56,049 nt of DNA from a virus (taxonomy: Duplodnaviria; Caudoviricetes), in the IMG/VR virus record IMGVR_UViG_3300048121_000547, positions 1-56,049 of that record; one strand, written 5' to 3'. Positions 1,495 to 42,310 of the stretch are shown piece after piece (position 1 is the first letter of the stretch; each line of letters opens with the position of its first letter). The notes under the pieces are model-generated. The model had not been told where the DNA came from and ran no database searches. It saw nothing but the letters and a program-made list of their open reading frames with translations. The position numbers and the translations under genes were made by a program.

Positions 1495-1575
1495 AGGGCA
1501 AACATCAGCTTTGTAGACAGGTTATCGCCCTCCTGACGTTGCATAGACTACAAAGCGAATCCTTATGCAAAGGGT
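1495..1575 (+). ncRNA. Putative structured cis-RNA (double pseudoknot) in the leader of gene 1582
   Basis: GCTTTGTAG/CTACAAAGC, CAGG/CCTG, TTGCATA/TATGCAA and AGGGC/GCCCT complementarities within 80 nt. Confidence 0.6.
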
Positions 1576-1581
1576 ACTAAA

Positions 1582-3445: not shown

Positions 3446-4026
3446 ATCTAGCCTTTTACAGTGATCCCACCGAAAAAGCTCTGGTTACTGAGATCATGGG
3501 CTGGTCTAAGGTTGCTCTAGAAAAACCCAGTAAGTTTTTTAACGGACTTCCTCCATGTCCGTTTGCAAAGACGGCGTGGTTGGAGGACAAAGTTTCAATT
3601 ATCTTTAAGAAAGAAGCGTCTTATCAGACGTTGTATTCCTGCATTTCTAGATATGATGATGCGTTTGATCTGGTAATTATTGTTGACTTAAAAAACACAA
3701 AGAACCCGGAGGATTTTCACGAATACTTGGACGATTTAAACCACCGCATTTCTGAAGGTATGTTTATCGACAAGGACATTTGGGTAATGGGATTTAACCC
3801 GGAAGATGAGCCTAGTGATTTTGTAGAAGATGTTACGTTTAAATACGAGATTGACGATGAGTACAGTATGATTTTTGTTCAGAGGCTTTCAAAATTACAG
3901 GAAGCGGCAAACAGGTTGGACAAAAAGGGATACTATGATAGCTATGACGGTGAATACAACTCTACAGAAATATACTTTAACCGTGAAAAACTGTACAGGA
4001 GACTAAAAAATGGCGATGAAACCTAA
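3442..4026 (+). CDS. DUF1415-like protein
   Basis: Acidic 194 aa protein with the PPCPFAK motif. Confidence 0.55.
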   Translation: MNLAFYSDPTEKALVTEIMGWSKVALEKPSKFFNGLPPCPFAKTAWLEDKVSIIFKKEASYQTLYSCISRYDDAFDLVIIVDLKNTKNPEDFHEYLDDLNHRISEGMFIDKDIWVMGFNPEDEPSDFVEDVTFKYEIDDEYSMIFVQRLSKLQEAANRLDKKGYYDSYDGEYNSTEIYFNREKLYRRLKNGDET

Positions 4027-4150
4027 AAAGATGCGTGGCGGCGGCATGGCAAAGAAGATGCGCGGTGGTGGCATGGTTAAGAAGCTGCGTGGCGGCGGCA
4101 TGGTTAAGAAACTTCGTAGCGGTGGAGCCGTTCGTAAATCTAAAAAGTAG
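4010..4150 (+). CDS. 46-aa basic repeat peptide, not in the ORF track
   Basis: AGGAG RBS; MAMKPKKMRGGGMAKKMRGGGMVKKLRGGGMVKKLRSGGAVRKSKK, four 27-bp tandem repeats. Confidence 0.8.
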   Translation: MAMKPKKMRGGGMAKKMRGGGMVKKLRGGGMVKKLRSGGAVRKSKK

Positions 4151-4156
4151 GCTAAA

Positions 4157-4825
4157 ATGACGTTATCTGGAACATCGGACTTTGAACTAGACGTTGCTGA
4201 GTATATTGAAGAAGCTTTTGAACGTTGTGGTTTAGAGGTCAGGACCGGGTATGATTTAAGAACGGCAAAACGGTCTTTAAATCTTATGCTTGCGGAGTGG
4301 GCAAACCGCGGTCTAAATCAGTGGACTATAAAGCAAAGAAGCTTTACCTCGACTCAGGGGGATGGCGATATTTCGATAAGTGCCGATGTTATAGACGTTT
4401 TATCGGTTGTGGTCCGTCGAGGTAACACCGATTACGCTTTGGATCGGGTTAGTCGAGACACGTTTTTATCCATTCCAAACAAAACAAGTCAGGGCCGACC
4501 GTCTCAGTTTTTCTTAGATCGTCAAACTACGCCTGTTTTGCAGATATGGCCGCGACCTGAAAACAACACGGATGTAGTTATCTATGATGCGTTAACTCGT
4601 ATGAATGATGCGGATGGTCAAACAAACACGCTTGATATGCCCTTTCGTTTTTACCCGTGTTTAGCCGCAGGGTTGGCGTATTATATTTCCATGAAAAGAG
4701 CTCCAAACCGCGTTCAACTTTTGAAAGCTGTTTATGAAGAAGAGTTCGAAAGAGCCATGACTGAGGACCGGGATAGGTCCTCTTTTAACGTTGTTCCGCA
4801 GTATCAGTACTTTAGGACTAACTAA
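4157..4825 (+). CDS. Head-tail adaptor / tail tubular protein A-like
   Basis: 222 aa; helical N- and C-termini around a beta core (GRPSQFF..LQIWPRP); structural module position. Confidence 0.65.
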   Translation: MTLSGTSDFELDVAEYIEEAFERCGLEVRTGYDLRTAKRSLNLMLAEWANRGLNQWTIKQRSFTSTQGDGDISISADVIDVLSVVVRRGNTDYALDRVSRDTFLSIPNKTSQGRPSQFFLDRQTTPVLQIWPRPENNTDVVIYDALTRMNDADGQTNTLDMPFRFYPCLAAGLAYYISMKRAPNRVQLLKAVYEEEFERAMTEDRDRSSFNVVPQYQYFRTN

Positions 4826-5595
4826 TGAGTAAGTTTGCGTCTGGAAAAAACTCTTTTGCTATCTCTGACCGATCCGGGTTCCGGTATCGGTACAAAGACA
4901 TGCGTAAAGAGTGGACCGGGGCGCTTGTTGGTAAGGATGAGTTTGAGTCTAAGCAGCCTCAACTAGGTCCTTTTCCCAAAGTTATAGACCCGCAAGCTTT
5001 AAAAGATGCGCGTCCGGATACAGGCAACCCTACGAGTGCTTTTTTGGTGGTTACGACTAACGGCATTGTTTACTTAGGCAATGGGAACTGGAGTACGTCG
5101 GGCACCGCCGAGATGCCCTCAGAAATTGCCCTTACTTCGGCGCTTGTTAGTGGAGTGGGGTCTGTGACGGTTAATGAATCCGGAGCGGGCAATGAAACTG
5201 TTACTTTGACGGGTTTAGGGGCTTCCACTTCTGTCGAGGCCGTTTCGGTTAATGCTCTAACTACTTATACAATGACGGTATCAAACCCCGGCTCTGGAAA
5301 TGTCTACTACCAAGATGGTTCACTCCCGGGCTCCGGAGGTAAAGATGTTACTGAGGGTTATACATATCGCTACGATCAGTCCAACGGCTCAAATTCAGGG
5401 CATCCGTTGCGATTTTCAACAACTTCAGATGGCACACATGGCGGCGGCTCAGAGTATACAACGGGTGTTACTTACAATGGGACGCCGGGTTCATCCGGAG
5501 CCTACACTCAGATTACGGTCGCTATTGGTGCCCCGACATTATATACTTATTGTAGCGTCCATAGTGGCATGGGTTATAAGGTGAACACGCTATGA
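4825..5595 (+). CDS. Virion protein with conserved N-terminus and C-terminal cupredoxin-like domain
   Basis: AISDRSGFRY..M.KEW N-terminus; C-terminus GHPLRF...LYTYCSVHSGMG. Confidence 0.65.
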   Translation: MSKFASGKNSFAISDRSGFRYRYKDMRKEWTGALVGKDEFESKQPQLGPFPKVIDPQALKDARPDTGNPTSAFLVVTTNGIVYLGNGNWSTSGTAEMPSEIALTSALVSGVGSVTVNESGAGNETVTLTGLGASTSVEAVSVNALTTYTMTVSNPGSGNVYYQDGSLPGSGGKDVTEGYTYRYDQSNGSNSGHPLRFSTTSDGTHGGGSEYTTGVTYNGTPGSSGAYTQITVAIGAPTLYTYCSVHSGMGYKVNTL

Positions 5596-6242
5596 GTTTT
5601 ACATATGCACAGCTAAAGCAGGCCATTAAGGACTATACAGAGTACGAAGAGACGGGTTTTGTTAACAACATTCCTTTGTTTATCCGGTTATCTGAAGAGC
5701 GCATTCTAAAAAATGTTCAGCTTAGTCTGTTTCGTAAAAACGCAACGGCTTTAACAAGCGAGTCGGGTCAGTACATTAAAGTCCCTAATGATTTTCTTGC
5801 TCCGTTTTCTTTGAGCATGACGGGAGCGGATGGGGATAAGTTTTTTGTTGAGTTCAAAGACCCCAGCTTTGTTCAGACGTACAATCCTGATCCTACCACA
5901 ACTGGAAAGCCTCAGTACTATTGCCAATTTGACGTTACTAATTTCTTGATGGCTCCGACCCCGAACCTGTCCTACACCGCAGAGCTTCATTATTTCTACC
6001 GTCCTCGTAGCATTACTTTGGATGGAGAGGATAATACTACTTGGCTTAGTGAAAACGCTGAAATGGCTCTTTTGTACGGCGCTCTTATTGAGGCGTATAT
6101 TTACATGAAGGGTGAACAAGATGTTATGGCTATGTACGCTCAGAGGTTCCAAGAAGCTATTATGGGAATTAAGATGCTGGGAGAGGCGAAAGAAACCACT
6201 GACGAATATCGTACAGGAAAAGTTATAAGGGCTAAACAATAA
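5592..6242 (+). CDS. Head-tail adaptor-like protein
   Basis: 216 aa; G.PQYY..APTPN..Y..ELHYFYRP and LLYGAL.EA motifs of podovirus adaptors. Confidence 0.65.
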   Translation: MSFTYAQLKQAIKDYTEYEETGFVNNIPLFIRLSEERILKNVQLSLFRKNATALTSESGQYIKVPNDFLAPFSLSMTGADGDKFFVEFKDPSFVQTYNPDPTTTGKPQYYCQFDVTNFLMAPTPNLSYTAELHYFYRPRSITLDGEDNTTWLSENAEMALLYGALIEAYIYMKGEQDVMAMYAQRFQEAIMGIKMLGEAKETTDEYRTGKVIRAKQ

Positions 6243-42067: not shown

Positions 42068-42310
42068 GCGGTTATAGTATATAGGCCAGAAAAAAAAAAA
42101 AAAAAAAAAACTGTTTTCAAGCCGTAACCACCGTAACTTATGTAACTTGGCATTTAACAGTATATATATAAAGAATAAATTTGGTTACATAAGTGGTTAC
42201 ACAGAGAAAGTACAAATATGTAACCAGAAAGATCGATATTGCGTTAAGGGGGGCGGGGGAAATTTTTTATAAAAAGTTTTTTCTGGCCTATATAACTGTA
42301 GCGGTTATAT
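42068..42310. other. Putative replication origin (or genome-end site)
   Basis: 18-bp flanking inverted repeat, A21 tract, convergent GTAAC/GTTAC iterons around an AT-rich core. Confidence 0.6.

Follow-up and report, generated by a model that had tools for sequence, protein, structure and literature searches.

A predicted double-pseudoknot leader after the capsid gene of a marine podophage-like genome as a structural variant of the Mu-gpT-DE RNA family

The orphan RNA family Mu-gpT-DE (Rfam RF03012) originates from Weinberg et al. 2017 (PMC5737381), the main text of which, as distinct from its supplement, makes no mention of it. In Rfam the family is classed under 'Gene; sRNA'. Its 53-nt consensus, of the form CCUG-A-CAGcc...ggCUG-ACAcUAGCCAcGA-CAGG, nevertheless ends in GGAGAUuaACAUG, that is, in a Shine-Dalgarno (SD) sequence and a start codon. 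We have analysed a related element in the IMG/VR virus record IMGVR_UViG_3300048121_000547 (Duplodnaviria; Caudoviricetes), of which the whole stretch of 56,049 nt (positions 1 to 56,049) is called here the window. The genome in the window is marine podophage-like, and the element, at 1495-1584 on the + strand, starts 87 nt 3′ of the stop codon of the major capsid protein (MCP) gene. Since it has the same junction core as Mu-gpT-DE, sequence comparison indicates that it is a larger and previously undescribed structural variant of this orphan family and not an entirely new RNA.

The two RNAs occupy the same genomic slot in phages whose MCPs are at least 90% identical to that of the window, with a Mu-gpT-like major head gene upstream, a −10-like hexamer and the same downstream gene family. 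They also have in common an outer helix, a one-nt A bulge, a CAG...CUG hairpin and a 12-13-nt 3′ internal loop framed AC...GA, whose predicted partner lies at the ribosome binding site (RBS) in either RNA. The outer helix has 9 bp and lies away from the SD in the window, whereas in Mu-gpT-DE it is a 4-bp CCUG/CAGG helix that overlaps the SD (CAGGAG). The internal loop reads GUUGCAUA in the window and AcUAGCCAc, consensus ACAcUAGCCAcGA, in Mu-gpT-DE, and its partner in the former is the 7 nt directly preceding the SD but in the latter appears to be UGG(C/G) of the start codon. Finally, a second pseudoknot, formed by a 5′ extension with the hairpin loop, is present in the window and absent from Mu-gpT-DE, the whole element measuring ~90 nt instead of 53 nt. 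The parts of the window element are the following:

1495-1499, + strand: AGGGC, 5′ strand of the first pseudoknot helix (PK1); pairs with GCCCT 1527-1531 and crosses the 5′ strand of the outer helix (P1)
1500-1507, + strand: unpaired spacer AAACATCA; family consensus AACAUYA with several nearly invariant columns (alignments A1 and A3)
1508-1516, + strand: P1 5′ strand GCTTTGTAG; 9 bp with CTACAAAGC 1548-1556
1517, + strand: bulged A at the boundary between P1 and the inner hairpin; invariant in type A leaders (defined below) and in Mu-gpT-DE (position 6)
1518-1535, + strand: inner hairpin, CAGG 1518-1521 with CCTG 1532-1535; its loop holds the PK1 3′ strand GCCCT 1527-1531
1536-1547, + strand: internal loop AC-G-TTGCATA-GA, in which TTGCATA 1539-1545 is the 5′ strand of the second pseudoknot helix (PK2)
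1548-1556, + strand: P1 3′ strand CTACAAAGC; pairs with 1508-1516
1557-1563, + strand: linker GAATCCT with the invariant CC 1561-1562, a candidate anti-SD
1564-1570, + strand: PK2 3′ strand TATGCAA; 7 bp with 1539-1545, crosses the P1 3′ strand and ends at the SD
1571-1575, + strand: SD-like AGGGT, by direct reading of the sequence

The first-pass annotation of the window had described four interleaved helices at this site, and all four (P1, the inner stem, PK1 and PK2) are perfect Watson-Crick helices arranged as it said. P1 reads GCUUUGUAG/CUACAAAGC in the window, its 3′ end lying 15 nt 5′ of the SD, and the internal loop reads ACGUUGCAUAGA. On the helices, their covariation, the position of the element, its link to the gene downstream and the architecture that it shares with Mu-gpT-DE, all of them seen by comparing sequences, we lean towards reading 1495-1584 as the 5′ mRNA leader of the first post-capsid gene, a variant of Mu-gpT-DE that would act in cis on translation; a transcript start, a translational effect with its direction, and a factor are inferred.

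Taken alone, the window sequence does not place this structure beyond chance. In all, 51 inverted repeats of 9 nt or longer (within 60 nt) occur in it. A 9-bp helix whose 3′ strand is crossed by a 7-bp helix and whose 5′ strand is crossed by a 5-bp helix is found at one site in the window, which is this element, and the expected frequency of such a three-helix topology, with thresholds set post hoc, is 0.18 per simulated 56-kb sequence, counting both strands. Neither the 18-nt core nor the 9-mer recurs beyond chance within the window, so that the element is not a repeated promoter or operator, and the type A covariance model described below finds a single site there. Once relatives are compared, the predicted structure is far above chance.

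To obtain such relatives, IMG/VR was searched with the MCP, which gave 600 candidate stretches; 598 of them were confirmed and the best 80 (MCP at least 90% identical) were used. Downstream of the MCP stop codon these relatives have a terminator, a −10-like hexamer, a structured leader, an SD and an open reading frame (ORF) beginning M-x-x-T-T-F-S-G-P. Among the 81 sequences made up by the 80 loci and the window, the leader is of type A, the form in the window, in 14 cases, of type B in 58 and of type C in 7, and two loci (L015 and L026) have none within 320 nt. The layouts are:

Type A: P1-A-CAGG...CCUG-AC-N8-GA-P1′
Type B: CCUG-A-CAGnn...nnCUG-AC-N9-GA-CAGG
Type C: AAUCUG-A-CAG-NCCCGA-CUG-AC-GAYAUGYA-GA-CAGAUU

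Type A is common, since at least 120 IMG/VR stretches match the pattern AGACAGG-N8-13-CCTGAC-N-TTGCA used for its collection. Pattern matches and MCP-selected loci together yielded 102 distinct leaders. MAFFT alignments of them (A1 and A2) put the PK1 5′ strand out of register and a covariance-model alignment was therefore used, the model being derived from 30 geometrically uniform sequences and based on PK1 and PK2. With it, 99 of the 102 leaders were re-aligned (A4; three near-duplicates left out), all at 62-114 bits, giving 90 distinct rows. The same pattern had 46 matches in genome contigs, two of which (L461 and L467) were genuine according to the covariance model. The two contigs, 5.8 and 8.9 kb long, had been assigned to a Thalassolituus and a Sedimentisphaerales metagenome-assembled genome (MAG); they are probably phage contigs and not evidence on the host, and a host assignment from them was rejected because the support from short MAG contigs only is too weak.

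In alignment A4, standard pairs fill 97.0% of the 2201 pair cells of the 90 distinct rows, compared to 89.8% after shuffling, and none of 500 shuffles reached the observed value; in a control with slid partners, 28-44% of the cells were paired. Eleven of the 25 pairs are kept through changes on both sides, namely 6 of 9 in P1 (in which 95.9% of the cells are paired), 4 of 5 in PK1, 1 of 7 in PK2 and none of the 4 in the inner stem, the latter being invariant in type A, including 13 leaders picked by MCP alone. The compensations in PK1 comprise AGGGC/GCCCT, TGGGC/GCCCA, CGGGTA/TACCCG, TGGGGT/ACCCCA, TGGAAC/GTTCCA and GAGC/GCTC. Within PK2, 66 of the 90 distinct rows have C-G at pair 6 and the other 24 have U-A, so that no mismatch occurs there; at pair 7, A-U is found 75 times and G-U 13 times. 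Pair 7 of P1 and pair 6 of PK2 occur together as CG/CG (50), TA/TA (27), TA/CG (20) and CG/TA (3); the covarying pairs are thus found in mixed combinations and do not reflect one inherited change. An independent RNAalifold prediction from the same alignment contains P1, the inner stem and a hairpin between the linker CC and the SD (the anti-SD hairpin). The internal loop keeps its frame, with ACN on its 5′ side in 102 of 102 and GA on its 3′ side in 101 of 102 type A leaders. The first-pass annotation had proposed a riboswitch-like, protein-binding or catalytic cis-acting RNA between the MCP terminator and the next structural gene, together with an alignment of homologues as the way to check it, and in that alignment the helices are conserved, with covariation in three of the four.

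The junction extends beyond type A. The core ACAG..CTGAC..GAC is present in 67 of the 81 MCP-selected leaders, against 0.13 in shuffled sequences, and the exceptions include Mu-gpT-DE relatives whose hairpin stems are compensated to CAA/TTG or CGG/CCG (by eye). Searched against Rfam 15, the whole window has no match at the gathering threshold, and the region 1400-1620 has no Mu-gpT-DE match even at E ≤ 10; the 15 weak matches obtained in that region at E ≤ 10 fall mostly on the terminator hairpin, the best having an E value of 0.25. As positive controls, the type B loci L004 and L013 matched RF03012 at 73.9 and 75 bits, its gathering score being 49, while the type A locus L025 had no Mu-gpT-DE match at E ≤ 1 and the type C loci L020 and L054 no Rfam match of any kind at E ≤ 1. 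The type A covariance model, in turn, picks up six type C loci, at weak significance (E 0.001-0.045), but none of type B. The novelty attributed to the element at first therefore holds for the form in the window, which is unmatched in Rfam, but not for the locus as such, because 58 of the 81 close relatives carry RF03012 at the same spot and the junction is common to both.

The remark of the first-pass annotation that the fold suits neither hammerhead nor HDV cores is in line with these searches, in which no Rfam ribozyme or riboswitch family matched. A self-cleaving ribozyme of an undescribed class, to which a double-pseudoknot fold with invariant junction nucleotides might belong, is hardly credible here: no Rfam ribozyme matches 1400-1620 even at E ≤ 10, the segment CUGACG/CUGACA is unlike the hammerhead core CUGANGA, and the element begins at the predicted transcript start, with nothing upstream to cleave off.

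Type C leaders (L020:3508-3594, L027, L034, L048, L054 and many of L323-L405) resemble the window element, by eye, in their double pseudoknot, in the junction and in a PK2 ending at the SD, here GAGG. They differ from it in having AAUCUG/CAGAUU as P1, UCGGG/CCCGA as PK1 (with a variant UCCGGAA/UUCCGGA, by eye) and AYAUGY/RCAURU as PK2, as well as a longer linker, a full TTGACA-17-TAnnnT promoter and an additional 5′ hairpin, CGGG...CCCG, as a possible competitor of PK1. In type B (L003-L080 and L203-L322; for example L004:3484-3548) the internal loop varies together with codon 2, GCC occurring with AUGGC and CCC with AUGGG. Among 94 type B sequences of equal length, the corresponding pair 32-55 is G-C in 69, C-G in 22 and something else in 3, and it is flanked by two invariant C-G pairs and, in 84 of the 94, by an A-U pair to the U of the AUG. 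This pseudoknot of loop and start codon is absent from the structure line of RF03012 in Rfam. The covariation of the loop with codon 2, together with the overlap of the outer helix with the SD, suggests that Mu-gpT-DE sequesters its own RBS. A pairing between hairpin loop and internal loop of Mu-gpT-DE was considered as well and rejected, as CAUCCCG or UUUUUU hairpin loops occur with the same internal loop (by eye).

At the RBS of the window, the SD AGGGT had at first been thought to compete with the PK1 5′ strand for GCCCT. This SD:GCCCU pairing has 5 pairs and −6.1 kcal/mol in the window itself, but comparison of relatives speaks against it: the outer pair is standard in 38 and the next pair in 68 of the 90 distinct leaders, and the pairing does not follow the compensatory changes that the PK1 5′ strand tracks. 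The SD itself occurs as AGGGU, GGGGU or GAGGU in the family, 10-14 nt 5′ of the AUG. The linker CC at 1561-1562 lies outside all four helices and yet is invariant or nearly so. When the tail is folded by itself, 57 of the 61 distinct tails have both C paired with the SD region at minimum free energy (MFE), which is −4.1 kcal/mol compared to −2.3 kcal/mol for shuffled tails. The closed helices of PK2 (−4.6 kcal/mol) and of the anti-SD hairpin (−4.5 kcal/mol) are nearly isoenergetic in the window, and the two are mutually exclusive. The conserved anti-SD hairpin, predicted from these comparisons, is a better candidate switch than SD:GCCCU.

Compact H-type pseudoknots with the SD at their 3′ edge and a competing local hairpin are found in the SAM-II/V, preQ1-II/III and guanidine-III riboswitches. 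The window element resembles these pseudoknot riboswitches in its compact fold, its invariant unpaired nucleotides, the adjacent SD and the mutual exclusion of PK2 and the anti-SD hairpin. It could accordingly be a small-molecule riboswitch in which the bulged A, the AC, the GA and the spacer AACAUYA form a ligand pocket and the ligand stabilises PK2, thereby freeing or blocking the SD. We consider this rather improbable: no Rfam riboswitch family matches either the whole window at the gathering threshold or 1400-1620 at E ≤ 10, the gene that would be regulated is a small gene of a phage structural module and not one of metabolism or transport, and the three scaffolds differ in their peripheral helices and have only a small core in common, and no ligand suggests itself.

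Upstream and downstream of the element lie the following features:

494-1408, + strand: MCP gene (PHROG 371, major head protein, E 1.6e-21)
1436-1469, + strand: intrinsic-terminator-like hairpin with T run, 3′ of the MCP gene (terminator scan)
1483-1488, + strand: −10-like hexamer TATAGT of the conserved form TAnnnT, with a predicted start near A1495
1582-1806, + strand: downstream gene of 74 aa, MASTTFSGPV..., with its ATG at 1582 (ORF list)

A TATAGT hexamer had been noted before; it is present, at 1483-1488 rather than from 1484 on. The suggestion that came with it, that the element has its own transcript start, agrees with the conservation of a −10-like hexamer at a fixed distance. All 97 distinct type A upstream sequences have a TAnnnT hexamer at 3-13 nt from the first helix, where shuffling gives 40; the usual distance is 5-6 nt (the hexamer ends 5-6 nt upstream of the first helix in 69 instances). 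The counts are 115 of 133 against 62 in type B, with a usual distance of 8-9 nt, and 51 of 52 against 19 in type C, with a usual distance of 8 nt. A TG within 3 nt upstream of the hexamer was found by a best-match scan in 66 of the 97 type A upstream sequences, and type C adds TTGACA at 17 nt from TAnnnT. From the distance between hexamer and helix, the RNA would start a few nt from the first helix, which lies within about 0-3 nt of the predicted transcript start in all three types. In the window, 1464-1488 holds the terminator T run where a −35 element would be, so that terminator and promoter-like site are packed back to back, and the same packing is seen in most relatives.

The short distance between the predicted start and the first helix might also point to a passive leader, that is, to a 5′ structure guarding a long late mRNA from decay that depends on the 5′ end, with a fixed translation rate. 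Such a role would suit an element heading the structural genes of the + strand, which run from 1582 to about 29561. However, a simple hairpin would suffice for protection, and the invariant unpaired nucleotides, the two pseudoknots and the contact with the RBS in every type exceed what it needs, so that we find this explanation unlikely. The same setting, directly 3′ of a promoter-like site and at the head of a ~28-kb co-directional block, would be appropriate for an RNA that acts in cis on RNA polymerase as a processive antiterminator, as put of HK022 does. Nevertheless, in all three types the fold reaches up to or into the SD and AUG, a position suggesting the ribosome and not the polymerase as the target, and it has no likeness to the two-stem architecture of put; we therefore judge antitermination very improbable.

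The leader is attached to the gene that follows it. The ORF after the leader begins M-x(1-3)-T/S-T-F-x-G-P in 99 of 99 type A leaders, and the C-terminus of an MCP is encoded within 300 nt upstream in 87 of the 99. In L026, ~1.9 kb of extra DNA (L026:3404-5338, with an ORF MKIAVIGKG...) separates the capsid terminator from a type B leader and its TTFSGP-type gene, and for this reason the leader is taken to move with the downstream gene and not with the capsid gene. Further leader forms with CUGAC and AGAC words, outside types A, B and C, precede the same gene family in L015 and in Phage DSL-LC04 (L202:3940-4035). The arrangement in L026 bears on whether the element could be a small RNA (sRNA) acting in trans or could lie as a 3′ element in the capsid mRNA. 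Mu-gpT-DE has the type 'Gene; sRNA' in Rfam and is named a 'downstream element', both of which would agree with such a role, and one contig from an RNA library, joining the MCP gene and the leader, might suggest it too. We hold this to be most improbable, given that the leader in L026 stays with the downstream gene, that a terminator and a −10-like site separate the MCP gene from the element, and that no terminator follows the element, which runs instead into an SD and AUG that both lie inside the Rfam consensus.

In the reading that we favour, a leader acting in cis on translation, transcription would probably start ~7 nt after TATAGT, in which case, because of that distance, the first nucleotides of the RNA, AGGGC, would already be one helix strand. 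The leader would fold as a two-helix junction composed of the 9-bp P1, the bulged A and the CAGG/CCUG hairpin, and two pseudoknots would lock it, one between the 5′ end and the hairpin loop (PK1) and the other between the internal loop and the 7 nt before the SD (PK2). By capturing RBS sequence the junction would set how frequently the message of a small downstream virion gene is translated, and PK2 and the hairpin between linker CC and SD would be the alternative states of a two-state RBS. A trans-acting factor reading the conserved junction nucleotides would then shift the balance between both states. It is probable that one common factor recognises the invariant nucleotides of the junction, and as a first guess this may be a structural protein of the phage exerting autogenous control, a choice favoured by analogy with protein-bound pseudoknot operators and with phage genes whose control is coupled to assembly. 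Pseudoknots that serve as protein-bound translational operators include those of E. coli rpsO/S15, of the alpha operon with S4 (a nested double pseudoknot) and of the phage T4 gene 32 leader. As in operators of the rpsO/S15 type, in which the pseudoknot lies at or beside the RBS of the regulated gene, the window has a pseudoknot beside a free SD; unlike a member of that group, it has no sequence or family relation to them. There is a smaller chance, which we do not put high, that the junction is a sensor common to at least three interchangeable scaffolds, Mu-gpT-DE, the double pseudoknot of the window and type C, binding a free capsid- or cement-type protein or a host metabolite, capturing the RBS of the first post-capsid gene and so coupling its translation to capsid assembly or to the state of the host.

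Several observations weigh against the leader reading or reduce the evidence for it. The nested MFE of 1485-1600 has a z-score of +0.49, with 131 of 200 shuffles folding at least as well, although this score is uninformative because pseudoknots are not modelled. PK2 covariation amounts to one pair and one G-U variant, and the pattern used for collection fixed 5 of the 7 PK2 pairs and the whole inner stem. Moreover, the model used to fit alignment A4 had PK1 and PK2 as its basis, so that the counts are biased in favour of these two helices. The types also differ at the RBS: both SD and AUG are buried in the type B fold, but in that of type A the SD stays unpaired. In type B the covariation between loop and start codon, obtained with a pattern that fixed ATGG, may partly reflect linkage between leader and protein subtypes (MA... 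versus MG...). As to transcription, a consensus scan calls no full sigma-70 promoter (−35/−10) at the window site, which has neither a −35 element nor the TG of an extended −10. In addition, one 2.6-kb metatranscriptome contig of a relative spans the MCP gene into the leader, which fits read-through or DNA carry-over. Parts of 900-2300 are present in four metatranscriptome runs from four studies; contigs from RNA libraries show no start, end or strand and therefore say nothing on the transcript start. Lastly, the literature searched yielded nothing on the function of Mu-gpT-DE; one work in it, Rivas 2020 (PMC7657543), names the motif, in passages and supplementary rows that do no more than list it.

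Regarding the surrounding genes, the MCP matches the Pfam families Phage_capsid_4 (54.7 bits) and Mu-like_gpT (24.9 bits, cut-off 20.1), and the DNA of its gene is ~67% identical to the counterparts in Pelagibacter phages HTVC027P and HTVC023P. The terminator hairpin (1436-1463) has 12 pairs, 6 of them G-C, and a loop of 4, followed by TTTTTTGTAA; a comparable hairpin and T run precedes the leader in most relatives (by eye). The 74-aa downstream protein has no Pfam, PHROG or PDB match, and in a protein atlas it falls into 'hypothetical' clusters only. The label 'cement protein' was considered for it and set aside, as this is a depositor annotation in phage DSL-LC04, with only the first 10 residues in common; the main text of the DSL-LC04 paper does not discuss the protein so labelled. 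With the leader at their head, the structural genes of the + strand extend over ~28 kb in one direction. Between structural genes at 4010-4150 there is a 46-aa ORF, very basic and glycine-rich, with the near-repeats KKMRGGGM and KKLRGGGM, and paralogous genes of the SU10_adaptor family (PF24175; 56.5 and 83.5 bits) lie at 4157-4825 and 5592-6242, around a tail-fibre-like gene. Farther away, the apparently non-coding region 42136-42226 contains perfect inverted repeats of 11 nt (42136-42146/42184-42194) and 10 nt (42182-42191/42217-42226); this cluster may be a regulatory or origin region.

Taken together, these results would recast Mu-gpT-DE as one member of a wider set of 5′ leaders on the post-capsid gene, a set that gains a common core and a testable mechanism, the capture of the RBS by an internal loop. 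A ~90-nt double pseudoknot with three covarying helices is unusually well supported and thus lends itself to structure determination and to a search for the factor. If the junction were indeed a sensor, it would represent a novel class of RNA operators or riboswitches with a wide distribution among abundant marine phages, and if the factor were a structural protein, the leaders would provide an example of assembly-coupled translational control in uncultured marine phages.

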